Source of the DNA: Halomicrobium mukohataei DSM 12286
GTDB lineage: Archaea > Halobacteriota > Halobacteria > Halobacteriales > Haloarculaceae
Assembly: GCF_000023965.1 (NCBI RefSeq)
Contig: NC_013202.1
Span: forward strand, 570,001 to 602,000
Length of the DNA stretch: 32,000 nucleotides
Direction of reading: 5' to 3'
This document shows, piece by piece, positions 11,340 through 27,063 of the stretch (position 1 is its first letter; each line of letters begins with the position of its first letter). The notes beneath the pieces are model-generated. The model was not told where the DNA came from and searched no databases. It worked only from the letters and a program-made list of their open reading frames with translations. A program made the translations under genes and the position numbers.

Positions 11340-12587
11340 TCACCGCTCGACGCCGGCCGGACCGGCCGCGAACTCGCCGCGGGCCGGTTCGGGGACGTAG
11401 TCGGCGAGGTCGGCGTCGTCGAAGTCGACGCGCTCGCCGCGTTCGGCCGCGAGATACGAGGCCGCGACGAGTTTCGCCACGTCCAGTCCGTCCCGGAGGT
11501 CCTCGCGTGCGTTCTCGCCGGCCCGGAACGCCGAGACGACGTGCTCGTTCTGGTCCAGGTAGCCGTAGGTCGCGCCCTCCTGGGGGAGCACCGGCATCTT
11601 CCCGCGGTCGGCGGCCTGTTTCTCGACGACGTAGCCCGCGCCCTCGGCCGCGCGGTCGGAGAAGAACACGTCGGTGCCCGATTCCAGCGTGTTGATCGTC
11701 CCCGAGTACTCCGGGCCGAGCAGTTCGATCGTGATCCGCAGCCCCGAGCCGACGAAACACCAGGAGTTGGTCGCCTCGCCCACCACGAGGTCGCCCTCGG
11801 GGGTCTCGTAGAAGACGCTCGCGGAGGCGTAGTCCTCGCCGGGCGTCTCGTGGTAGTCCACGTCGTACTCCGCGGCCAGCTCGGCGGCGTAGTCGTCCCG
11901 GCCCCACTTCAGCGTCGAGATGTCGCAGGTGACCGCGATCGGCTCCAGATCGTCCTCGCCGGGCCGACTGAGGAGGTGCCTGTTGACCTTGTGGGAGTGA
12001 CACATCATGTCCGAGAGGACGCCGCCACCCTGCCGTTCGGGGTCCCAGAACCACGACGAGTGGGGACCCGCGTGTTCCTCGGCCGAGCGGGCGAGATACG
12101 GTCGCCCGGCACCCTCGGCGGAGTCCCACAGCAGCTCCTTCATCCGGTCGACGCCCGGCATGTACACCTGGTTTTCGAGGTAGGCGTGGTTCAGCTCGGT
12201 CTCCTCGACCAGGTCGACGATTCGCTGGGCCTCGCCGACAGTGCGGGCGAGCGGTTTCTCCATCGCGATGCCTGCGAGGTCGGCTCCGCCCTGCTGGATC
12301 TCCTCGACGATCGCCTCGACCGTCTCGACGCGGGTGTGGTTGGGCGAGGTGACCCAGACCGCGTCCACGTCTTCGTGGCCCACCAGTTCGCGCACGTCCC
12401 CCGTCGCGATCGGGTCCCCACTGCCGGCCTCGCGGCAGGCGTCCGCGACCGCCTCGGCCTTGCTGACCGTCGGGTTCATCACGCCCGTCACGTCCGCGTC
12501 GCGAATGCGTTCGAAGGTCGCCGCGTGGAACTCCCGTGTGATGAAACCGGCACCCACGAAGCCGACGCCCAGTCTGTTCGTTGCCAT
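11340..12587 (-). CDS. Gfo/Idh/MocA family NAD(P)-dependent oxidoreductase
   Basis: N-terminal Rossmann motif LGVGFVGAGFITREFH, EKP motif (IAMEKPLA), 415 aa. Close paralogue of the partial gene at 31315-32000. Confidence 0.85.
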   Translation of the reverse strand: MATNRLGVGFVGAGFITREFHAATFERIRDADVTGVMNPTVSKAEAVADACREAGSGDPIATGDVRELVGHEDVDAVWVTSPNHTRVETVEAIVEEIQQGGADLAGIAMEKPLARTVGEAQRIVDLVEETELNHAYLENQVYMPGVDRMKELLWDSAEGAGRPYLARSAEEHAGPHSSWFWDPERQGGGVLSDMMCHSHKVNRHLLSRPGEDDLEPIAVTCDISTLKWGRDDYAAELAAEYDVDYHETPGEDYASASVFYETPEGDLVVGEATNSWCFVGSGLRITIELLGPEYSGTINTLESGTDVFFSDRAAEGAGYVVEKQAADRGKMPVLPQEGATYGYLDQNEHVVSAFRAGENAREDLRDGLDVAKLVAASYLAAERGERVDFDDADLADYVPEPARGEFAAGPAGVER

Positions 12588-12653
12588 GGCACACGGTACG
12601 ACGGGACGCGGTAAATAGATTCGTTCGATAGTCCAAACAACGGTGGCCGTACC

Positions 12654-13802
12654 CTACAGGTCGATCGATCGAGACACCGACGCCTCGGCGATCTCCTCGG
12701 CGGTGACCTCGCGGCCCCGTTCGGCCGAGAGGTAGATTCCCTCCATCACGAGCATGGAGTTGAGCGCGATCTCGTCGGTCCGGATCTGGTCGACCTCGCC
12801 GCGGACGGCCGCGACGAAGTGGTCGTACTGGTTCGGGCGCTCGTCGACCTCGTAGCCGCTCTCGCCCCGAATCAGTCCGTGACGGGTCTCGAAGCCGTCC
12901 ACGTCGATCTCGACGGTCGTCTCGTAGTCGTTCATCGTCGTCAGGAGTTCGACCGGATCGAAGGCGATCCCGCCCTGGCTGCCGACGACGACGCCGCGCT
13001 CGTCTGGCTGGTAGGCGTGCCAGGCGGCCCGCACTTCCAGGCGAGAGCCGTCGGCCAGTCGGGCCGCGCCGGTGCCGGCGTCCTCCACGTCGTGGCCGGA
13101 CTCTTCGAGACGCTTCCGGTAGAGCTCGGCGTTGTCGCCGGTCAGCTCCTCGCCGAGGCTGTCGTCGGTGTAGTCGAACGTCTGGCCGTTGACGCGCTCG
13201 ACGGCGGGGTTGCCCAGCAGGTAGAGGTTGCGACCGATCTCGTAGGTGCCGATGTCGAAGACCGGCCCGCCGCCGGCCGACTCCTTCGAGACGAACGCGG
13301 GCGTCCCGTAGCCGTCGACGTACGGGCGACCACGCCGCCGAGAGTACACCGACCGGGCGAACGAGACCTCGCCGAGATCGCCCGATTCGACGAAGGTCCG
13401 TGCCGCCTGCGTCTCCGGCGTCAGCAACTCGACGTTCTGGACCGCCAGGAGCTTGTCGGCCGCATTGGCCGCGTCGACGATGTTCTCGGCGTCGGTGTAG
13501 CTGCCGGCCAGGGGCTTCTCACAGAAGACGTGCTTGTCGGCCTCGAAGGCGGCGACCGCCATCGGCTCGTGGAGGTTGTTGTGGACACAGACGTTGACCA
13601 CGTCGATCTCCGGATCGTCGAGCATCGCCTCGAAGTCCTCGTAGACGTCCGGAATCCCGAACTCGTCGGCCAGCTCTCCCGCGGCCTCCGTGTCGATGTC
13701 CGCGATCGCCTTGACGGTCGCGCCGTCGACGCCTCGATACTTCCGGATGTGTTCTTCGCCTCGATTCCCCGCGCCGATGATGCCGATAGTGACTGTCTCC
13801 AT
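12654..13802 (-). CDS. Gfo/Idh/MocA family NAD(P)-dependent oxidoreductase
   Basis: METVTIGIIGAGNRGEEH Rossmann motif and the CEKPLA motif. 382 aa. Confidence 0.85.
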   Translation of the reverse strand: METVTIGIIGAGNRGEEHIRKYRGVDGATVKAIADIDTEAAGELADEFGIPDVYEDFEAMLDDPEIDVVNVCVHNNLHEPMAVAAFEADKHVFCEKPLAGSYTDAENIVDAANAADKLLAVQNVELLTPETQAARTFVESGDLGEVSFARSVYSRRRGRPYVDGYGTPAFVSKESAGGGPVFDIGTYEIGRNLYLLGNPAVERVNGQTFDYTDDSLGEELTGDNAELYRKRLEESGHDVEDAGTGAARLADGSRLEVRAAWHAYQPDERGVVVGSQGGIAFDPVELLTTMNDYETTVEIDVDGFETRHGLIRGESGYEVDERPNQYDHFVAAVRGEVDQIRTDEIALNSMLVMEGIYLSAERGREVTAEEIAEASVSRSIDL

Positions 13803-14008
13803 GATGGTGTTCGTGTCCGGACTCGGCCGCCACTCGTCGCGACGGCGGCCCGGCGATCAACTGCGAGTGTTCGGAGTATCATCGAAGATACTGTTAAATC
13901 CACCGATGGGAACAACAGCAGGTGTTAATGTTGCCGCCGATCCGACGGGATCGGTGCGGCCTGGCTCGCGACCGGCGAGGATTTCAGGCTCCGCCGTCTA
14001 CCGCGGGT

Positions 14009-14626
14009 ATGTTCGAACAGCGACCGAACCGGGACAGCGAGATCGTCCTGGTGGGCCGGTCCAACGTCGGCAAGTCGACGCTAATGCGCGAGATCACGGG
14101 CCACAGCGTCGACACCGGTCAGAAGCCCGGCGTCACCCGCAAGCCCAACCACTTCGACTGGGCCGGTCCGGACTTCATGGTCACCGACCTCCCCGGCTTC
14201 GGGTTCATGAACGGCGTCCCCGAGGACGTGCGCGAGCAGATCAAGACCGACGTTGTCCGGTACGTCGAGGCCAACGCCGACAAGATCCTCGTCGGCATCC
14301 TCGTCCTCGACGGGAAGGCGGCCGTCGACATCATCGACCGCCACTCCGGTCCCGACGAGATCCCCCACGACGTGGAGCTGTTTCACTTCCTGCGAGACGT
14401 CGACGTCGAGCCCGTCGTCGCCGTCAACAAGATGGACAAGGTCGACGACGAGGAAGAGCGGCTAAACGACATCTGCGATCGTCTCGGCCTCTATCCGCCG
14501 TGGCAACAGTGGCAGGAGACGATCGCGCCGATCAGCGCCAAGCGGGGCACCGTCGACGCCCTCGACGAGGCCGTCCGCCACCACCTCCACGAGGCCGGGC
14601 GAGACGATCTGTTCCAGTTCTTCTAG
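14009..14626 (+). CDS. engB: ribosome-biogenesis GTPase EngB/YsxC
   Basis: ATG at 14009. G1 [10 protein letters not shown]3 DLPGFG, G4 NKMDK. The listed upstream extension (from 13922) is Arg-rich. Confidence 0.8.
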
Positions 14627-14670
14627 GACCGTTCTCTGCGTCGGGTGCGCTTCGCGCACCGCTGGCGAGG

Positions 14671-16680
14671 TCACTCCGGGTCGAGACGCGTGACGGTGAG
14701 GTGTTCGACGGTCGACCGGGCCAGTTCTTCGGGCTGGACGCTACAGACCGTGGTGCCGACCCGGACGGGGTCGGTCAGCTCGACGCGGCGCTGGTCGAGT
14801 GGCCGCCACGACCGACCGTCCGTCGAGCAGTAGATCGTCAGCGTGTCCCCGACCCGGTCCAGGCGGTACCACGGGGCATCGAGCGACGACTCTTCGAGGT
14901 GGCGGGTCGTCCCGCCCTCCCCTCGGCTCGTCCGCCAGTCGATTTTCGTCCCGTGGCCCGCGGTGAGCCCGACGTGTCCGTACGACGCCTCGTCGTCGAG
15001 TCCGTCTCTGATCATCAGCCCGGCGGTGCTCCACTCGTTGGCACCGTCGAGGTCGGTGAACTGCCCCTCGATCCGGACCGGCCCGTCGACGCTGGCACAG
15101 CGGAAGTGAAACTCGTTCCACTCGCCGTAGATGTTCTTCCCGGAGCCGGAGACGTGCCACTCGTCGCCCTCCAGCGTCGACTCGCCCGCGACGATCACGT
15201 CCCCGACATCGATCCCGTCGGTGAGCGAGAACGTCTCTTCGGCGGTCGGCACGACCGAGGGATCGGAGACCACGAGCGCGTTCCGGAGTTCGACGCGGGC
15301 CCCACCGGCCCAACTCTCCGTGAGAGAGAGCTCCCAGTTGCGCTGTTCGGCGATGTTCGTGACGATGCTCAGCCCCGTTCCGGTGCCGGTTCTGGTCGTC
15401 GTGTACCCGTCTTCGAGGACGCGCTCGCGTTCGGCCTCGGGGATGCCGGGGCCGTCGTCGGCGACGTACAGCCCGCCGGATGGCAGCGGCCCGACGCGGA
15501 CGGTCACGCCAGAGCAGCCGTGGTCGACCGCGTTCTTGAGCAGGTTTTCGAGGACCGGCCGGATGCTCGACCGAGGCGCGTTGACGACGGCGTCCGCCCC
15601 GAACTCGATCTCCAGCGACGCGGCGTCGAAGCCGACCAGTTCCCACACGTCCTCGAGGAGGTCGGACAGCGACACCGGACTCGACTGTCCGACGCCGACC
15701 CCCTCGGGCGAGAGCGACGAGTTCTCCAGGACCGTCTGCGTGAGATCGTCGAGGATCTCGTCGATGCGCGTGATCGCCTCGCTGGCCTGTTCGAGCGTCG
15801 TCACGTCGCCGGTCTCGCGGGCCAGGGCGATCCGGCCGCTGGCGATCTGAATGGGGCTCTTCACGTCGTGTCGGATCGACCGGACGAACTCCTCCATCCG
15901 TTCGTCCTGGCACTTCAGGCGCTCGCGTCGCTCGACGATCTCCGTGACATCGCGAGTCCAGCCGACGAGTCCGACGACCTCGCCGTCGTGTTTCCAGGGC
16001 AGTTTCGTCGTCCACGACCAGTGGGTGCCGTCGGGCGTCGTGTAACTCGCCTCCTTGTCGTAGATCGGTTCGCCCTCCTCGATGACCCGGAGATCGTCCT
16101 CGTAGGACGCGAGGGTGTTGTCCGACTCTCCGTACACCTCCACGTCGGTTTTGCCGATGAACTCCTCGGAGCTGAAATCGCCCGGACTCGTCGACTTGCG
16201 GAGGTGACGAGCCGCGCGGTCCTTGACGTACACCGCGCCCTCGACGCCGTCGAGAATCGCCCTGAACATGCTACTCTCAGCGGCCTGGTCGCGGCGGCGT
16301 TCGTACCGGTCGACGGCGGCGGCGAGGCGATCGGGCAGGTCGTCCTCGTCGAGGACGATCTCGCTCGCACCGACCTGCGTGGCGCGTGCTGCCGTCCGAC
16401 CGGCCGAGTCATCGAGCGACAGGAGGATGGGGCGGTGCTCGTCGACCGCGTGAATCCGTTCACACGCCTCGACGACCGACGCGTCGGTCGGGGCTGCCGT
16501 CACCAGCACGCAACCCACGTCGCGGCGGTCCGACAGCGTCGCGAGTGCGGCCTCGACGCTGTCGACGACGACGACGACCTCGTCGAACGAACCCGCCGAG
16601 CCAGACCGGACTTGAGCCACCGCCCGCTCGCGTCCGCCGACCACGAGAACCGTGGTCGGGTCACTCAGTAAGTCGTCCAT
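14671..16680 (-). CDS. soluble sensor histidine kinase: degenerate receiver - PAS - HisKA - HATPase_c - extra C-terminal beta-sandwich (ConA/DUF1349-like) domain
   Basis: H-box SIRHDVKSPI, N-box ENLLKNAVDH, G1 ADDGPGIP, G2 GTGTGLSIV. A PAS-like segment lies upstream. There are no TM segments. About 200 aa follow the ATPase domain. Confidence 0.85.
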   Translation of the reverse strand: MDDLLSDPTTVLVVGGRERAVAQVRSGSAGSFDEVVVVVDSVEAALATLSDRRDVGCVLVTAAPTDASVVEACERIHAVDEHRPILLSLDDSAGRTAARATQVGASEIVLDEDDLPDRLAAAVDRYERRRDQAAESSMFRAILDGVEGAVYVKDRAARHLRKSTSPGDFSSEEFIGKTDVEVYGESDNTLASYEDDLRVIEEGEPIYDKEASYTTPDGTHWSWTTKLPWKHDGEVVGLVGWTRDVTEIVERRERLKCQDERMEEFVRSIRHDVKSPIQIASGRIALARETGDVTTLEQASEAITRIDEILDDLTQTVLENSSLSPEGVGVGQSSPVSLSDLLEDVWELVGFDAASLEIEFGADAVVNAPRSSIRPVLENLLKNAVDHGCSGVTVRVGPLPSGGLYVADDGPGIPEAERERVLEDGYTTTRTGTGTGLSIVTNIAEQRNWELSLTESWAGGARVELRNALVVSDPSVVPTAEETFSLTDGIDVGDVIVAGESTLEGDEWHVSGSGKNIYGEWNEFHFRCASVDGPVRIEGQFTDLDGANEWSTAGLMIRDGLDDEASYGHVGLTAGHGTKIDWRTSRGEGGTTRHLEESSLDAPWYRLDRVGDTLTIYCSTDGRSWRPLDQRRVELTDPVRVGTTVCSVQPEELARSTVEHLTVTRLDPE

Positions 16681-19513: not shown

Positions 19514-20487
19514 GAGACACCCTCCGCGACCAGCGGATTGTCGCGCGTGGTCGTCAGTTCCGTCAGTTCGTGGACGGCGTCGCCGAGCGAGACGGTCACG
19601 CCCGTGGCGTCGGCACGGACGCGTACGTCGGCCCGGTTCCAGGCGGTCTCGTCGACGTCGCCGCTGCTCGTCCGCGCGAGGAGTTCGAGCGCCCGCTGGC
19701 GGTGGCGCTGGCCGCCGCCCGCCTCGATCGAACCGGCCGGGACCGTCATCGCGGTGGTCAGCCCCGCTCGGAGCGCGCCGACGAGGACCGTCGCCGCGCC
19801 AGCGGCCATCTCGTCGGCGTGACCCTCGGTCGACCGTGCCGCGATCGAGATCCCCTCGCCGCCGACGGGATCGGAGAACTCCGTCACCAGCAGGTCGTCG
19901 TGTTTGGCGCTCGACTTCCAGTGGACGTCTCGCAGCGAGTCGCCGGGCACGTACTCGCGGAGTCGGTCGAACTCGCTGCGCTGGCCGCTGTCCAGTCCCA
20001 GCGTCCGCTCGAAGGTCGCGCCGCCCAGTGAGTAGACCGCCGGATAGACGACGACCTCCGTGCGCTCGGTGACCTCGTGGCGCTGTTCGACCAGCCCGAG
20101 CACGTCCCGGACGGCGACGGTCGTCCGGGAGAGTTCGTAGACCCCGCGTGCGTCGTACCTGAGGTCGTAGCTGACCGTCGCCGGCAGCGTCCGCTCGAAT
20201 TCGGCCGCCGCCGACAGGCCGTCGGCGAGCCCCTCGGTGATCGTCGCGACGCCGCGTCCCTCGACCGTCAGCGAGACGGTCCGGGACTCGCCGGGAAAGC
20301 CACGACGGGGTTGGCTGCGCTCGACCGTCGGTGCCCCCGCCCGTGTCACCTGGAGCGCGCCGACCGCGAGGGCGATCGACAGCGGCGCGGCGACGGCGTT
20401 TAGCGACCGCGGGCCCGACAGCCACGCCATCGTCACTGCCAGTCCCACGACGGCGAGCGTCGCGGCGCCGCGGCGTGTCGGTCTCAT
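19510..20487 (-). CDS. DUF58 domain protein
   Basis: Two N-terminal TM helices followed by EFDRLREYVPGDSLRDVHWKSSAK, the DUF58 signature. The ATG overlaps the moxR stop (ATGA). Confidence 0.82.
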   Translation of the reverse strand: MRPTRRGAATLAVVGLAVTMAWLSGPRSLNAVAAPLSIALAVGALQVTRAGAPTVERSQPRRGFPGESRTVSLTVEGRGVATITEGLADGLSAAAEFERTLPATVSYDLRYDARGVYELSRTTVAVRDVLGLVEQRHEVTERTEVVVYPAVYSLGGATFERTLGLDSGQRSEFDRLREYVPGDSLRDVHWKSSAKHDDLLVTEFSDPVGGEGISIAARSTEGHADEMAAGAATVLVGALRAGLTTAMTVPAGSIEAGGGQRHRQRALELLARTSSGDVDETAWNRADVRVRADATGVTVSLGDAVHELTELTTTRDNPLVAEGVS

Positions 20488-21446
20488 TCTTCGATCGGGA
20501 CAGTGTCGAGAGCCGTCCGGACCAGCCCCGCGCCGGTCTGTTCGGCGGTGTCGGTTCGGATGCGGTGGGGCAACACGACGCGTGCTTCCGCGCGCACGTC
20601 GTCGGGGACGACGTAGTCTCTGCCGTCCAGTACCGCGCGGGCCTGTGCCGCCCGCAAGAGCGCGATGCTCCCGCGCGGGCTCACGCCCAGTTGGCCGTGT
20701 TCGCGGGTGTAGCGTGCCAGCCGCGTCGCGTACTCGCGAAGCGGCGCTTCGATCGTCACGTCCGAGACCGTCCGCTGAGCCCGGCGAAACTCCTCGACGC
20801 TGGCGACCGGCGAGAGGCGCTCGATCGGGTGGTCGCTGACGACGCGAGCGAGCATGGCCGCCTCGTCGTCGGCGCTGGGGTAGCCGAGGTGGAGCTTCTT
20901 CATGAAGCGGTCCAGCTCCGCCATCGGGAGCGCGTATGTCCGGTTCTGCTCGACGGTGTTCTGGGTCGCGATGACGGTGAACGGATCTGGCACGTCCCGC
21001 GTATCCCCGTCGACCGTGACCTGCTCTTCTTCCATCGCTTCCAGCAGCGCCGACTGGGTCTTGGGCGGCGCGCGGTTGATCTCGTCGCCCAGGACGACGT
21101 TCGCGAAGATCGGTCCCTCCTGGAAGGTGAACGTCTCGGTCTGCTGGTTGTACACGTTGACGCCCGTCACGTCCGACGGCAACAGATCCGGCGTGAACTG
21201 GACGCGCTTGAAGCTACCGTCGAAGGAGGCCGCGACGGCCTTCGCCAGCATCGTCTTGCCGACGCCGGGAACGTCCTCCAGTAGGATATGGCCCCGCCCC
21301 AGCATCGCGGTCAGGATGTGCTCGATCTCCTCGTGGTGGCCGACGATGACCCGCTCGACGTTCTCGATGACCTGGGTCGCGACTCGGTTCGCCTCGCCGA
21401 GGGCAGAGTCGGAGTGGGACCCTCGTGATGTGTCGGTATCTGTCAT
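20484..21446 (-). CDS. MoxR-family AAA+ ATPase
   Basis: ATG at 21446. Walker A EDVPGVGKT, Walker B VLGDEINRAPPKTQSALLEAMEE, then VIATQNT and LDRF motifs typical of MoxR. Confidence 0.9.
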   Translation of the reverse strand: MTDTDTSRGSHSDSALGEANRVATQVIENVERVIVGHHEEIEHILTAMLGRGHILLEDVPGVGKTMLAKAVAASFDGSFKRVQFTPDLLPSDVTGVNVYNQQTETFTFQEGPIFANVVLGDEINRAPPKTQSALLEAMEEEQVTVDGDTRDVPDPFTVIATQNTVEQNRTYALPMAELDRFMKKLHLGYPSADDEAAMLARVVSDHPIERLSPVASVEEFRRAQRTVSDVTIEAPLREYATRLARYTREHGQLGVSPRGSIALLRAAQARAVLDGRDYVVPDDVRAEARVVLPHRIRTDTAEQTGAGLVRTALDTVPIEE

Positions 21447-21649
21447 TGTTGTCAGTGTCCACCGCAGGCGCGCTGTCACGGGACCACGCCCCGGCAGTGG
21501 CCCCGTCGGCGGACGGCCTGGGACTGCCGTCGCCGGGCGCGATGCCGGTCGTGGCCCCTCCTTAGGGATCAGCGCTTGTAATACTGCTGCCTGTTACCAC
21601 GACACGCATACGACCGCAGACAGACGACACGGTCCGCCAGACCGTCGAG

Positions 21650-21904
21650 CTACCACTCCTTGCAGTCGGGACAGACCAGCCCGTCCTCGCCCTGCCAGCG
21701 GTACGAAACCGAGGCCCCACACCGGCAGCAGGGCTCGCCGTCGGGCGACCAGGCCGCCGTCGTCACTGCCGGCTCGACGCCGTCCGGTGACACCCGACCG
21801 CCGTCGTCGCCCGCCTGCTCGTTCCCACTCGTCGACGACTCGTCTCGGGGCTCGTCGTCCGTGGCGTCGCCGACGAAGTCCGTCAGCGAGGCGTCGTCAC
21901 TCAT
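21650..21904 (-). CDS. small acidic protein with C-terminal zinc ribbon (84 aa)
   Basis: Acidic N-terminus followed by CCRCG...(17 aa)...CPDCKEW. The layout is that of conserved haloarchaeal small zinc-ribbon proteins. Confidence 0.55.
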   Translation of the reverse strand: MSDDASLTDFVGDATDDEPRDESSTSGNEQAGDDGGRVSPDGVEPAVTTAAWSPDGEPCCRCGASVSYRWQGEDGLVCPDCKEW

Positions 21905-21913
21905 ACCAACCCG

Positions 21914-22363
21914 TTGGGACGGGCGAACATTGGACCTGTCGGTGGGGACCGAACCGCGCCCGGACCCGCCGACAGCGATTTCGGCCCCGACGACCTCCGA
22001 CGAGACGTGCCCGCGACAGTACGTCGAGACGCACTGCTGGCCGCCCTCGCGTCGGCCGGACTGCTCGCGCTGTTGGTCGCCGAACGAGCGGTCGACGCGC
22101 TCACCGCCCCGGCGGCGATCGCCAGCGGCGTCGCGGTGGCGCTACTGGTCGAAGTCGCGTTCCTGCGATCGACGGCGGTCGCGCGCCTGTGGACGCGCCC
22201 GGCGATCCAGCTGGGCTCGGCGGGCGGGCTCCTCGCCGTTGGACTGGCCGGCTACGCGCTCGCCGGGCCACTCGTCGTGGCGGCGCTGTCCTGGGGACTG
22301 GTCACCTACTTCGCCCTGCTCTGTGTGCTCCTGGCGAGCGGTCGCCGTCCGACGACCGAGTGA
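21914..22363 (+). CDS. hypothetical membrane protein (start uncertain; alternative GTG at 22007)
   Basis: Three to four hydrophobic helices (LLAALASAGLLALLV, IASGVAVALLVEV, LGSAGGLLAVGLAGYAL, LVTYFALLCVLLA). No recognisable family. Confidence 0.45.
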   Translation: MGRANIGPVGGDRTAPGPADSDFGPDDLRRDVPATVRRDALLAALASAGLLALLVAERAVDALTAPAAIASGVAVALLVEVAFLRSTAVARLWTRPAIQLGSAGGLLAVGLAGYALAGPLVVAALSWGLVTYFALLCVLLASGRRPTTE

Positions 22364-23118: not shown

Positions 23119-23192
23119 GCCGCCTTAGCTCAGACTGGGAGAGCACTCGACTGAAGATCGGGCTGTCCCCGGTTCAAATCCGGGAGGCGGCA
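23119..23192 (+). tRNA. tRNA-Phe (anticodon GAA)
   Basis: Hand-folded cloverleaf. Acceptor GCCGCCT/AGGCGGC, D arm GCTC-AGACTGGGA-GAGC, anticodon arm CTCGA-CTGAAGA-TCGGG, variable loop CTGTC, T arm CCCGG-TTCAAAT-CCGGG, discriminator A. CCA is not encoded, and TTTT follows immediately. Confidence 0.95.
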
Positions 23193-23293
23193 TTTTCCTG
23201 CGACCGAAGGGAGCAGTGAAAATGCTCCCGAGCGGATTTGAACTAGACCGAGATTCTGCGAGCGGAGCGAGCAGGGTCTCGGGCGTAGTTCAC

Positions 23294-23310
23294 AATCCGG
23301 GAGGCGGCAT
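23294..23310 (+). repeat. direct repeat of the tRNA-Phe 3' end (att-like); partner copy at 23177-23193
   Basis: AATCCGGGAGGCGGCAT is identical (17/17) at 23177-23193 and 23294-23310. Similarity extends 5' (GTTCA-AATCC vs GTTCACAATCC) with a 1-nt indel. Confidence 0.6.
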
Positions 23311-23482
23311 ACCCTTCTCGGTTTACATGCCGGAACGACATTCCCCCTTAGCCGGGGGTCTGTCCGGGGGTGGTCAGCGTGACCGATTCCGACCCCGTAG
23401 AACGCGACGACGGAGTCGATTCTCCCGACGCGAACCTCAGGGAAGAGAGCCTCGAAACTACGGTCAGGCGCTGTCTGCACGG

Positions 23483-24859
23483 ATGGACGCACTCTCGAAG
23501 CAAGTCTCGGGGCTCCGCGAGGAACGACACGACGAGCGAGAGCAACGAGACGAGTTAGAGGACGAGCTGGACGCGCGCGACGAGCGAGTCGACGAACTCG
23601 AAGCGGAAGTCGCGCGACTGGACGCACGAGCGGTGGTGAAAGAGGAGAGCGACTACGACGATGTCGACGCCGACGAGCACCGCAAGGAGATCGAAGCCAT
23701 CGCGCTGCAGCTCTTCGGCGGCTGGGCACACGAGTATCCCGACGGAAGCCGCGACCGCGGCGACTGGCACATGCTCCTACTCGGGGACCCCGGCTGTGGG
23801 AAGTCCACGTTCCTCCGCTACGTCGATCAGATCGCACCGCGGTCGACCTACGCCTCGGGGAAGGGTGCGACGGCGGCAGGCATGACCGCGGCGGCGGTCG
23901 CTGACGACTTCGGAGATACAGAATGGGGGCTGGAAGCCGGTGCGCTGGTGCTGGCCGACGGCGGGATCGCCTGCGTCGACGAGATCGACAAGATGCAGTC
24001 CGATGCAGTGTCCTCGATGCACGACGCTCTGGAGAGCCAGCAGGTCCACGTCAACAAGGCGGGGATCAACGCCACGCTGAACGCTCGCACCTCGTTACTG
24101 GCGGCAGGGAACCCGAAGAACGGCCGCTTCGAGCGCTACCGTCCGAAGGGCGAACAGATCGACATGGGGCCGACGCTCCTCTCCCGGTTCGACCTGATGT
24201 TCATGATGTCCGATCAGCCCGATCGGGAAGACGACGCCGAAGTCGTCGAGTACATGCTCCAGAGTCGGCAGGCTGCCGGTCGGCATACCCGTGGGGAGGA
24301 GCTGAGTGACGAGGAACAGCAACGGGTCGAACCGGCGATCGATCGAGCGGTGATGCGGGCCTACGTTGCTTACGCCAAGCAGACCTGCCGTCCGATCATC
24401 GAGGATGAGGAGGTTGCGGAGCGACTGAAGCAGTTCTTTGTCGAGTTCCGAGCGAGTGCTGGTGAACAAGATGACGATTCGCCGATTCCGCTGACGTTCA
24501 GGAAGGTCGAGGCCATACAGCGGCTGGCAGAGTCCAGTGCACGGGTTCGGCTTTCGGATATCGTGGAGATTGAGGATGTAGAGAGGGCAATTATGCTTGT
24601 GACGAAGTCGATGAAGCAGGTGGGGTACAATCCTGAGGAAGGTGAGTTTGATGCAGATATTATCGAGACAGGACAGTCGAAAAGTCAACGAGAACGGCGT
24701 GAGACAATTCTGGCTATTGTAGAGGAACTGGATGGGGCGACAGTGGAAGAGATTGCTCAGAGAGTGGAATTCGACCAACAGTTACTCAAGCACGATATTG
24801 AAATTCTGAAGGAGGCGGGAAGGATTCATCTAATGGACGGCAAGTTCCGGAAAGCGTAG
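23483..24859 (+). CDS. MCM-family AAA+ ATPase with C-terminal winged helix, lacking the MCM N-terminal (OB-fold/Zn-finger) domain; a short coiled coil precedes the ATPase (458 aa from ATG 23483)
   Basis: Walker A LLLGDPGCGKST, Walker B GIACVDEIDKM, sensor-1 LLAAGNP, Arg finger SRFDL, and GLEAGALVLADGG (MCM-specific). The C-terminal ILAIVEELDGATVEEIAQRV...EAGRIHLMDGKFRKA segment is wHTH-like. The N-terminus MDALSKQVSGLREERHDEREQRDELEDELDARDERVDELEAEVARLDA is coiled-coil-like. The listed ORF start at 23216 is Arg/Gly-rich and runs over the att repeat. Confidence 0.8.
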   Translation: MDALSKQVSGLREERHDEREQRDELEDELDARDERVDELEAEVARLDARAVVKEESDYDDVDADEHRKEIEAIALQLFGGWAHEYPDGSRDRGDWHMLLLGDPGCGKSTFLRYVDQIAPRSTYASGKGATAAGMTAAAVADDFGDTEWGLEAGALVLADGGIACVDEIDKMQSDAVSSMHDALESQQVHVNKAGINATLNARTSLLAAGNPKNGRFERYRPKGEQIDMGPTLLSRFDLMFMMSDQPDREDDAEVVEYMLQSRQAAGRHTRGEELSDEEQQRVEPAIDRAVMRAYVAYAKQTCRPIIEDEEVAERLKQFFVEFRASAGEQDDDSPIPLTFRKVEAIQRLAESSARVRLSDIVEIEDVERAIMLVTKSMKQVGYNPEEGEFDADIIETGQSKSQRERRETILAIVEELDGATVEEIAQRVEFDQQLLKHDIEILKEAGRIHLMDGKFRKA

Positions 24860-24891
24860 CAGGCAGTGTGATCGTACTATATCTGAGTTCC

Positions 24892-24897
24892 TTTTTT
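24892..24897 (+). terminator. oligo-T tract downstream of the MCM-like gene
   Basis: CCTTTTTTATT lies about 35 nt after the TAG stop. Oligo-T is the established archaeal intrinsic termination signal. Confidence 0.4.
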
Positions 24898-24935
24898 ATT
24901 GTGTCTTGGAATAGATCGCAGGGTGATAAGTTCTC

Positions 24936-24948
24936 TTAAGTATTATAT
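24936..24948 (+). promoter_or_regulatory. TATA box for the 619-aa ORF
   Basis: TTAAGTATTATAT is centred about 28 nt upstream of ATG 24972, spacing expected for a leaderless or very short-leader haloarchaeal mRNA. Confidence 0.45.
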
Positions 24949-24971
24949 GCGGTGTCCAATGTTTAGGAGAT

Positions 24972-26831
24972 ATGGAGCATAATTACGAACCAGTCAAACT
25001 AAAACGGATAGGTACAGGATCAAGTTTTCAATCAAGATATGACCTGACCCGGAATCGATTATCTAATAATAATATTGATTCTTTACAAGATGCTGTCGAA
25101 AAGTTGCGCAAGACTATCTCAAAAGCCGGATCATTAAATATCATAAAGGAATTGTCATTACACGAAACGATTCGTTCTGCGATATTGCATTCTCTAAATA
25201 TTGACACTGGAATCCCGCCAGCAATGGTGGAGTACCTGTTTGGCGTTTGTACAACTATCGAACCGACTTCAGGTAACACTGATATTGGGTTCTATGATGT
25301 TATAGATGCGCTCTCGCTTGTGGAGGATAGGCTTCGGTTTGAAAATTTGAAAAATCTGGATGATGCAGAGACAATCGAAGAAAAGCAACAATCATTTATA
25401 CAAATCCAATTGATGGAAAAAGAAATATCTACGGGTCCATTTGTACATGGTCGGCAAAGACGAGAATATGCTCGGAGAGTTCTGGGGAAGTGCGATAATT
25501 ATATTGTGGATATATTAGACATATCTGTGACAGACTCTATTCTGTCTGCCGATCTCTTGGGAGAAGTAATGGGGCAGCATATTCAGCAAACAATCCTACA
25601 GGCTCTACAAGGACTAATTCAAAAAGGAGCTCAATCAGACATCATCTCTCATTCTGAGGTTCTTAGTAAGCAAAAACCAGATAAAGAATTATTCCGTCTT
25701 GTATTGGAATACGATAGACAGAGGTTAGATCCAATCAATAATTCCGATGGCTTTTCTGAAGAGAAGGATGTCCTATTTGGTAATTTATCGTCCCATGTCA
25801 AAAAAGTAGGTATCGAAAAAGAAGCTGTGAAGCAAGCGCTGAATTCTAGTACAGTGCCATATGACACTTTCTTGGAAGAATTTGGAATATCGATTGGAGA
25901 ATACAAGAGTGATCCGGCAGATTTATCTGGTTCCATTAATAAATTTGATTATCCTTTTGACCATAATCCGTTACATGAATATCCAATTCTTGTTGATCGA
26001 GAGGGAAAAATATATCATGGACCTTCAAATTCGTTGTATTATTCTCTCTCAACAAGGCCCTATTACGAGCTTTTAGATTCAGAATATAAAGATGAAGCGG
26101 ATGAACTGATAGGGGAAGGGAACGAAATCTGGGTTCTTGAATGTCTGGACAGAATCTCAGACGAAAATGTGGAAATAATCCATAGTGCCGAATACGATTA
26201 CAAAGATGGAGAATCAGATTTTGTCTTGATATACGATGATACTTTAGTTGTACTTGAGTGTAAGACTAGAGGTCCAAAATTGGAGACAAGGAAAGGCCCA
26301 TTCGGGGATTTTAATGAGATTCAAGCAAATCTCTCAGATATTATTTCTGGTCCATATGAGCAGGCTACGAAACTGATTAATGCGATTCGAGAAGGTGAAA
26401 TAGACGAAATCAAAACTGGCTATGGGACAAGACAGTTGTCGGATGATGATTTTGACTCATATATTCCCGGAGTGATCTTAGCCCGTTCTCTCAACGCAGT
26501 TGGAACTACATTATACCCCGACGCTGTAGAGTTCAATAATGAGCTTCCATTTGTCACTGATTTATACAGTTTTCAAACAATATGTCGGCATGTCCAAGGG
26601 AGCAGTGGATTTTTGGATTATCTCGAACGTCGAGTGGCCGTAGCAGAGCAGGGACGGGTGTTTAGCGTAGACGAACTGGACTACGTCGGTGCATACCTTG
26701 ATAGCAATCTTTCATTTCCTGAGGCACCATCAGAATGCCTGATCGATATTATCGATTCAGGTAGTCATCTCGACCGGACTTACGAATCGGATATCGATGG
26801 GCTACCCAATGAAGATATTCCTCGCCTTTAA
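24972..26831 (+). CDS. low-GC orphan protein (619 aa) with a C-terminal PD-(D/E)xK nuclease-fold signature
   Basis: It is the only long ORF in the AT-rich segment and has an acidic, haloadapted composition. The motif string is E385 (GNEIWVLE) ... D416 (GESDFVLIY) ... E429-C-K431 (LVVLECKTR) ... Q (EIQ / YEQATK), codons at 26124, 26217 and 26256-26264. The N-terminal ~370 aa are helical and unrecognised. Confidence 0.8.
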   Translation: MEHNYEPVKLKRIGTGSSFQSRYDLTRNRLSNNNIDSLQDAVEKLRKTISKAGSLNIIKELSLHETIRSAILHSLNIDTGIPPAMVEYLFGVCTTIEPTSGNTDIGFYDVIDALSLVEDRLRFENLKNLDDAETIEEKQQSFIQIQLMEKEISTGPFVHGRQRREYARRVLGKCDNYIVDILDISVTDSILSADLLGEVMGQHIQQTILQALQGLIQKGAQSDIISHSEVLSKQKPDKELFRLVLEYDRQRLDPINNSDGFSEEKDVLFGNLSSHVKKVGIEKEAVKQALNSSTVPYDTFLEEFGISIGEYKSDPADLSGSINKFDYPFDHNPLHEYPILVDREGKIYHGPSNSLYYSLSTRPYYELLDSEYKDEADELIGEGNEIWVLECLDRISDENVEIIHSAEYDYKDGESDFVLIYDDTLVVLECKTRGPKLETRKGPFGDFNEIQANLSDIISGPYEQATKLINAIREGEIDEIKTGYGTRQLSDDDFDSYIPGVILARSLNAVGTTLYPDAVEFNNELPFVTDLYSFQTICRHVQGSSGFLDYLERRVAVAEQGRVFSVDELDYVGAYLDSNLSFPEAPSECLIDIIDSGSHLDRTYESDIDGLPNEDIPRL

Positions 26832-27063
26832 ACGTCGATATTAGTACTGCAGTTTTGTCCCAGTTCATCAAGAACCACGACACGCGACCTGCCATATCGC
26901 GATAGAGCCCCTCCCTCGAACCCAGACGGTGATTGCTGCTGTCGCAGTGCGTACTGCGAGCGATCCATCCGGTCAAACGCATCGGTTCCGCGCACGTCGG
27001 CGGTCCTACGACCGCCGGCCACGAGCGAAGTTTGTATGACGGACGGCCGAAAAGGGACGCGTA

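Follow-up and report, generated by a model that had tools for sequence, protein, structure and literature searches.

A probable remnant of an MCM-carrying integrative element beside tRNA-Phe in Halomicrobium mukohataei, with a nuclease gene as interchangeable cargo

The stretch of DNA considered here, called the window, comprises 32,000 nucleotides (nt) of the haloarchaeon Halomicrobium mukohataei DSM 12286 (assembly GCF_000023965.1, contig NC_013202.1, positions 570,001 to 602,000). Within it a tRNA-Phe(GAA) gene is followed on the same strand by two protein-coding genes. The first encodes a short minichromosome maintenance (MCM) protein deposited in UniProt as C7NZ81. The second, 112 nt beyond the MCM stop codon, is an open reading frame (ORF) of 619 amino acids (aa), designated ORF2, whose product carries the database name 'MULTISPECIES: NERD domain-containing protein [Halomicrobium]'. 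The identical 619-aa protein and the same neighbours are found in CP045142.1 and in the read sets SRR017870-2 (Halomicrobium chromosomes). An earlier interpretation made from the letters of the window (the sequence-only reading) took the two genes for a possible self-contained defence-like or exclusion module on a low-GC island, and named as its alternative the decayed replication module of a provirus or plasmid. The tRNA gene at the start of the region is confirmed by ARAGORN and Rfam, and neither an integrase nor a capsid gene lies within the island, both as had been read.

Pfam detects the MCM P-loop domain (PF00493, E=2.7e-72) and the MCM lid (PF17855, E=2.2e-22) in the product of the first gene, together with a weak C-terminal winged-helix match. 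MCM_N and MCM_OB are not detected by Pfam, in agreement with the earlier description of an MCM devoid of its N-terminal DNA-binding domain. Walker A (GDPGCGKS), Walker B (DEIDKM) and the arginine finger (SRFD) are intact. ORF2 is preceded by a T6 run (24892-24897) and a TATA-like box (TATTATAT, 24941-24948) that lies 24-31 nt before the ATG at 24972; the oligo-T tract and the TATA box had both been seen correctly. The compositional claims stand in part. ORF2 is indeed of low GC content (39.7%), but the shift does not begin directly after the tRNA, the MCM gene having 60% GC against ~66% for the window and thus standing 20 points above ORF2. Lines of 60 nt at or below 33% GC account for 6 of the 30 in ORF2, and the sulfatase gene further downstream, set against them at 73%, averages 68%.

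The history of the locus becomes visible when it is compared with related loci, gathered by scanning species-representative genomes and metagenomes. They form a family of elements with members in H. katesii, Haloarcula rubra, Har. sebkhae, Har. argentinensis, Halosimplex pelagicum, Halorussus and many metagenome contigs. In the intact layout a tRNA 3′ end is followed by ~60 nt, a gene for a 195-aa coiled-coil protein (p195), a gene for a 681-aa MCM, cargo genes, a 22-nt site and a tyrosine-recombinase gene. The p195-MCM module is also found on Haloarcula megaplasmids. Family elements always start at the 3′ end of a tRNA gene, either tRNA-Phe or tRNA-Thr, and the same left end (CCCTTCTCGGTTT...) follows both. 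The 22-nt site, with the consensus AGTT(C/G)A(C/T)CAAGAAC(C/T)ACGACAC, bounds the variable stretch on the right; exactly one plus-strand copy is present in 18/18 family loci and none in the 160 other loci compared. In intact elements it is located ~105 nt upstream of the start of the integrase gene, which encodes a tyrosine recombinase of 199 aa and is found downstream in loci L011, L013, L015, L096, L098 and L102. A search of the literature found no description of this p195-MCM-integrase family.

Five Halomicrobium versions at tRNA-Phe have kept the 22-nt site and ~90 nt of diverged pre-integrase sequence, and their integrase is gone. In the window the homology to intact elements ends at about the integrase start codon, the gene itself being deleted and ~110 nt of its upstream region left. 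Alignment with L011, L013, L015, L096 and L098 places the element-derived DNA between 23193 and ~26972. An alignment with related strains that lack the insertion had been suggested by the sequence-only reading, which had let the island run on to 27063. The segment is in all likelihood an immobilised remnant of a small integrative plasmid-like element, in which ORF2 is interchangeable, stand-alone cargo. The integrase was lost in the common ancestor of the Halomicrobium versions at tRNA-Phe. As regards the MCM gene, the alternative named earlier, decay of the replication module of an integrated element, proved correct.

The short MCM gene can be traced to its parts. Full-length MCM genes occupy the same chromosomal locus in L010 (H. 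mukohataei GCA_012726095.1) and L012 (a metagenome contig), with flanks 95-96% identical to those of the window and the order acetyltransferase, tRNA-Phe, p195, 681-aa MCM and, later, sulfatase. All of the nearest relatives of the 458-aa protein (82-85% identity) are MCMs of 681 aa, found in Halomicrobium and Haloarcula. Aligned to these, the ORF consists of p195 coiled-coil residues ~39-88 joined to MCM from residue ~236-239. About 1.25 kb are absent from the window, comprising the 3′ part of p195 and MCM codons 1 to ~235. Window position 23628 corresponds to L010 position 9461, inside p195, and window position 23618 to L010 position 10715, at MCM codon ~239; the break lies in a short repeat that codes for L-D-A-R in both genes and thereby keeps the fusion in frame. 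At the same locus H. katesii (L019) shows an identical junction, so that the deletion was a single event in an ancestor. The native p195 start is a GTG at 23370. Relative to H. katesii the window has lost 1 nt near 23464/23465, a frameshift that separates this start from the rest and leaves the ATG at 23486. The same locus in Halomicrobium sp. LC1Hm (L178) has undergone a different and larger truncation, leaving a 327-aa MCM stub without Walker A. Judged from these alignments, the supposed MCM without an N-terminal domain is the product of a microhomology deletion and not a designed architecture. The deletion between the 'LDAR'-coding repeats, which fused the p195 N-terminus to the MCM AAA+ part, took place in the lineage shared by the window strain and H. 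katesii.

The fusion might instead have been co-opted, either for superinfection exclusion, by poisoning or competing with the MCM of related elements that enter the cell, or for some other host function. Two species that share the deletion junction have kept its ORF open, with Walker A, Walker B and the arginine finger still in place. For the AAA+ part, the raw ratio of nonsynonymous to synonymous substitution rates (dN/dS) of the window against H. katesii is 0.05. This ratio, however, is uninformative, and it was dismissed as a sign of function. Identity between the two fusion genes is 99-100% at the 5′ end and then falls to 90%, 79% and finally 54% at the 3′ end, and downstream of ~23900 the two copies resemble each other no more than they resemble full-length MCMs. 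Such a gradient indicates recombination inside MCM: the 3′ two-thirds have been exchanged with other MCM copies, and the divergence past ~23900 arose in full-length genes and was imported. The comparison between the window and H. katesii therefore holds no valid evidence of selection on the truncated MCM. Against co-option speak also the extra frameshift that removes the native start from the window copy, the different, P-loop-less stub of LC1Hm, and further short MCM gene calls among the relatives, some of them probably cut by contig ends. Co-option is accordingly quite improbable, and the fusion is most likely a non-essential relic. As a separate observation, the last ~350 nt of the MCM gene (window ~24500-24859), coding for the winged-helix end, fall to 47-55% GC in all family loci. 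They diverge far more between elements than the AAA+ core does, as if this end travelled with the cargo.

The final 17 nt of tRNA-Phe (AATCCGGGAGGCGGCAT) recur exactly about 100 nt further on, as had been noticed, and the 16-nt core of the repeat has only these two copies in the window. Its proposed role as an att-like island boundary does not hold, for the repeat brackets a scar and not the island. The 101-nt stretch between the copies is an insertion relative to H. katesii, where it is absent from the same locus. It forms two strong hairpins, folds far better than shuffled controls (z = -5.7) and contains an inverted, tRNA T-arm-like sequence (GGATTTGAAC). The insertion looks like the scar of another event at tRNA-Phe. 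LC1Hm has the same scar, split by an insert of ~80 nt with terminal inverted repeats (TAGTAGCCATTGAAA...TTTCAATTGTTACTA; L178 7789-8000) that looks like a miniature transposable element (MITE-like). A right-hand att repeat was also looked for: neither the window nor the DNA on the right side of the integrase of L011, L013, L015 and L096 has a further copy of the tRNA 3′ end.

Immediately after the MCM stop codon, family loci change character. GC falls abruptly to 38-48%, and 1.3-5.3 kb of genes follow that differ from locus to locus: the 14 slots that could be delimited between the MCM gene and the 22-nt site have 14 different contents (Table 1). Known defence types among them are PDC-S11, IetA-like, MzaB-like, Mrr and Panacea genes. 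The orientation of the cargo also varies, homologous 551-aa genes being on opposite strands in L011 and L097. By its gene contents the slot would follow the pattern of an accessory or defence hotspot, and its occupants do not look like partners of the MCM. ORF2 is the current occupant in the window, with promoter-like signals of its own, a foreign composition and no relation to the occupants of sister strains. Cargo turnover may proceed by homologous recombination, with the conserved MCM gene as left anchor and either the 22-nt site plus the pre-integrase stretch or the host flank as right anchor. The identity gradient between the window and L019 within MCM is consistent with such recombination-driven turnover. 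Integron-like cassettes were considered and rejected: the cargo has no extra 22-nt sites beyond chance, two borderline matches in 14 loci being about the number expected.

Might ORF2 nevertheless be the PD-(D/E)xK effector of a two-gene system for defence or exclusion, with the truncated MCM as its motor or sensor? In favour stand the position of the two genes side by side on one strand, the unbroken ATPase motifs, the repeated presence of nuclease-like cargo (Mrr, NERD-type) next to the MCM of these elements, and the many known defence systems that combine an NTPase with a nuclease. Homologues, however, do not travel together. Close relatives of ORF2 form only eight clusters at 38-44% identity among 5.8 billion proteins, and tblastn finds no MCM in five of five contexts of such homologues. 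These are other low-GC islands on haloarchaeal contigs, with integrases, a KAP NTPase, PIN/MazE toxin-antitoxin genes and Fic. A distant relative on a Halobaculum plasmid likewise has no MCM nearby, so that the co-occurrence named as a test by the sequence-only reading is lacking in 6/6 contexts. In the other direction, only 2 of the 23 MCM-element loci have a gene of the ORF2 superfamily, namely the window and LC1Hm. The LC1Hm gene, 22% identical to ORF2, has the opposite orientation and the P-loop-less MCM stub as its neighbour. That a stub without Walker A can adjoin such a distant relative of the nuclease argues that MCM activity is dispensable. The MCM truncation is accidental, sister strains having the full-length gene with unrelated cargo at the same locus; other cargos are not nucleases, and ORF2 is set apart by the GC gap and by its own terminator-like and promoter-like signals. 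A joint system is thus very improbable. The idea that the nuclease is defence-like is plausible for a stand-alone cargo gene of the slot and fails for one half of a pair.

The nuclease assignment itself was well founded. Pfam places ORF2 marginally in the NERD family (PF08378, 23.2 bits against a cut-off of 22.1), and the D...ExK signature proposed from the sequence, D416, E429 and K431, is invariant in an alignment with the seven closest relatives. Among 76-83 distant relatives D416 and Q464 do not vary at all, and K431 and E385 are conserved in at least 90%. A first structure model, built from 8 sequences, had a pLDDT of 67 and gave uninformative fold matches; it was superseded by an AlphaFold2 model from 83 sequences (pLDDT 90.5, pTM 0.91). 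In the latter, residues ~20-300 are all-helical and residues 373-503 form a core of the order alpha-beta-beta-beta-alpha-beta. E385 is located in the first helix, D416 in the second strand, E429 and K431 in the third strand, and Q464 in the following helix. The family profile matches the nuclease core of Can2 (PDB 7bdv, E=5e-6) across the G..E...D...ExK segment. ORF2 is thus predicted, from its profile and its modelled fold, to be a Can2/NERD-type PD-(D/E)xK nuclease with an extra helical N-terminal half. No relatives of known function are detectable for the N-terminal ~350 aa. Searches of the viral structure library BFVD returned generic nuclease-domain matches only.

A profile search of 1.84 billion representatives recovers 779 clusters at E<=1e-3, which share mainly the C-terminal ~300 residues and vary at their N-termini. 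The ORF2 superfamily of ~780 clusters (50% identity) is almost entirely unannotated. Among 76 relatives of ORF2, Pfam detects only NERD (12) and Card1_endonuc (2), and PADLOC mainly the nuclease part of its CARF_PDDEXK models (17/76). The nuclease core is homologous to those of Can2/Card1 and NERD proteins, but ORF2 has no CARF domain and no CRISPR link. The close relatives P0002-P0004, P0006 and P0007 have an N-terminal C2H2-like zinc-finger motif, CxxC...F..L..LRLH...C (alignment columns 15-45), which is absent from the window ORF2, P0005 and P0008.

The best Foldseek match of ORF2 is Upx (9wuf; E=5.9e-4, probability 1.0), followed by Can2 and N.BspD6I. Upx defends against phages as a single PD-(D/E)xK protein and recognises the phage terminase through its large sensor part (PDB 9wuf; PMC13099982, PMC13601566). 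Like Upx, ORF2 is one large polypeptide with a non-catalytic part and a C-terminal, divergent PD-(D/E)xK domain with an ExK motif, but it is half the size (619 versus ~1270 aa). Acting alone, ORF2 may be a sensor-nuclease that takes part in conflicts with viruses or plasmids: its helical N-terminal half would sense or regulate, and the PD-(D/E)xK core (E385/D416/E429/K431) would cut DNA.

A nuclease of mobile DNA need not be a defence protein, and ORF2 could instead be a selfish or housekeeping enzyme, for example of the homing, recombination or plasmid-maintenance type. NERD domains were first noted on plasmids. Relatives of ORF2 are present on haloarchaeal megaplasmids, and PADLOC does not recognise ORF2. 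On the other hand, recognised defence-type genes are among the other occupants of the slot, the protein is large and adds a non-catalytic half of ~350 aa as do sensor-effector defence proteins such as Upx, and its eight close clusters make it rare and patchy. A role outside defence is therefore unlikely, and ORF2 is probably a stand-alone candidate defence gene.

Several observations weigh against the picture of an immobilised element with a defence cargo. No empty site was found, and close orthologues of the sulfatase gene occur only in element-carrying strains; the intact elements have no tRNA-derived repeat to the right of the integrase. The ends and the mobility of the element are therefore putative. 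In two species the fusion ORF has stayed open with every ATPase motif, and a retained function of the p195-MCM fusion is conceivable. The two nucleases of one superfamily at the same slot in the window and LC1Hm could hint at a link to the locus. For about half of the cargo genes no function can be recognised, so that the term defence hotspot is supported by 7 of ~17 loci. PADLOC, one of the checks the sequence-only reading had called for, has no significant match for ORF2 itself (none at E<=1). The structural match to Upx is weak (TM-score 0.33 by query and 0.20 by target, root-mean-square deviation 12.7), and there is no link at the sequence level, the family profile missing 9wuf at E<=10.

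A provirus with capsid genes was also considered, and there is no sign of one: IMG/VR has no close relative of the window MCM, halovirus MCMs are at most 44% identical to it, and ORF2 is unmatched in phage records.

Table 1. Features of the tRNA-Phe locus in the window, and cargo of the variable slot in family loci
Feature	Position	Strand	Basis or content
tRNA-Phe(GAA)	23119-23192	+	ARAGORN; Rfam tRNA 62 bits; tRNA positions in related loci
101-nt structured scar	23193-23293	+	
Second 17-nt copy of tRNA 3′ end	23294-23310	+	
Element left end and disabled 5′ part of p195 gene	23311-23485	+	Comparison with H. katesii and L010
Fusion ORF, 457/458 aa, UniProt C7NZ81	23486-24859	+	Pfam; blastn/tblastn to L010, L012, L019
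Deletion junction, microhomology encoding L-D-A-R	23618-23628	+	Same junction in L019; donor sequences in L010
Low-GC cargo slot, MCM stop to 22-nt site	24860-26861	+	In the window ORF2 only
ORF2, 619 aa	24972-26831	+	Pfam, alignments, AlphaFold2 model
Predicted nuclease-core coding region, residues 373-503	26088-26480	+	AlphaFold2; Can2 profile match E=5e-6
Conserved 22-nt site AGTTCATCAAGAACCACGACAC	26862-26883	+	One copy per family locus
Diverged pre-integrase remnant	26884-26972	+	Alignment with intact L011, L013, L015, L096, L098
Cargo, same tRNA-Phe locus, window			NERD-type ORF2
Cargo, same tRNA-Phe locus, L010		opposite	Mrr_cat
Cargo, same tRNA-Phe locus, L012			367-aa unknown
Cargo, same tRNA-Phe locus, L019			5.3 kb of other genes
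Cargo, same tRNA-Phe locus, L178 (LC1Hm)		- (paralogue)	601-aa distant ORF2 paralogue, and M10-like peptidase
Cargo, L017			PDC-S11, E=9e-132
Cargo, L015 and L016			MzaB-like HATPase beside pentapeptide or ion-channel protein
Cargo, L103			IetA-like AAA ATPase and DUF6414
Cargo, L102			Panacea/SocA domain protein
Cargo, L099 and one plasmid			DUF6338
Cargo, various loci			TauD-like, proteasome-like and M10-like proteins, many unknowns

Some further features of family loci were noted in passing. A convergent cargo pair is shared by L015 (12248-16125) and L016 (Halosimplex pelagicum, 12196-15966). It consists of a pentapeptide-repeat protein of ~700 aa, with an ion-channel domain in L016, and a HATPase_c_3 protein of ~555 aa with an MzaB-like N-terminus, and could be a candidate two-gene system in itself. 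The 22-nt site is single in some elements and doubled in L011, L012, L017, L019 and L178 (AGTTGACCAAGAAG, 8 nt, AGTTCATCAAGAAC), for example at L011 13883-13926 and L012 10177-10220. It might anchor recombination, act as an integrase operator or serve as a site for a recombinase. Downstream of the integrase lie 400-700 nt of non-coding DNA with internal repeats (L013 14995-15427, L011 18428-19165, L015 18649-19412), which may serve as an origin or as another variable slot. Extra genes, one of them for an HNH_2 protein, separate the integrase from this stretch in L011 and L015. About 7.5 kb downstream of the MCM element, L016 has a dense array of ~16 tRNA genes (19604-22039), in which an overlapping ARAGORN 'tmRNA*' call is probably spurious.

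Archaeal MCMs borne on mobile genetic elements (MGEs) have been treated before, reportedly by Krupovic et al. in 2010. In the MCM survey of Kristensen et al. 2014 the 458-aa protein of H. mukohataei DSM 12286, C7NZ81, is an 'outlier' of unknown function, and the 681-aa Q5V011 of Haloarcula marismortui is an MGE-associated 'outlier' among haloarchaeal MCMs (PMC3972481). The window protein is C7NZ81 itself and shares with the outlier MCMs the AAA+ core, the lid and the C-terminal winged helix. It differs in being now read as a p195::MCM deletion fusion in an integrase-less remnant, without MCM_N and the OB/zinc-finger part.

The P4-like and P2 hotspots of enterobacteria are defence-gene hotspots in small integrative elements or satellites. 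The haloarchaeal family resembles them in its short backbone of replication gene and integrase at a tRNA and in its one sharply bounded slot, the content of which differs per copy and includes defence-type genes. It differs in its archaeal backbone of p195, MCM and a short, 199-aa tyrosine recombinase. It also has no known helper virus or packaging link, and ~40% of its cargos are recognisable.

On a more far-reaching reading, the p195-MCM-integrase elements may represent an undescribed family of minimal archaeal integrative replicons, in which cargo is added to a backbone of ~4 kb. The single slot, precisely delimited by the MCM stop and the 22-nt AGTTSAYCAAGAACYACGACAC site, would be a point of exchange for anti-virus genes among Haloarculaceae that turns over even in integrase-less remnants. 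The ORF2 superfamily would be a new family of single-protein sensor-nuclease defence proteins, distantly Upx-like in design. This combined proposal is offered tentatively and is rather less probable than its opposite.

For the locus itself, the published 'outlier' MCM C7NZ81 is explained as a deletion fusion in a dead element, and the lead of an MCM-nuclease two-gene system can be dropped. Haloarchaeal defence is still poorly charted and most occupants of the slot are unannotated. The compact, sharply bounded slot of haloarchaeal MCM elements could be mined for archaeal defence genes, and the 619-aa nuclease family is a concrete defence candidate.

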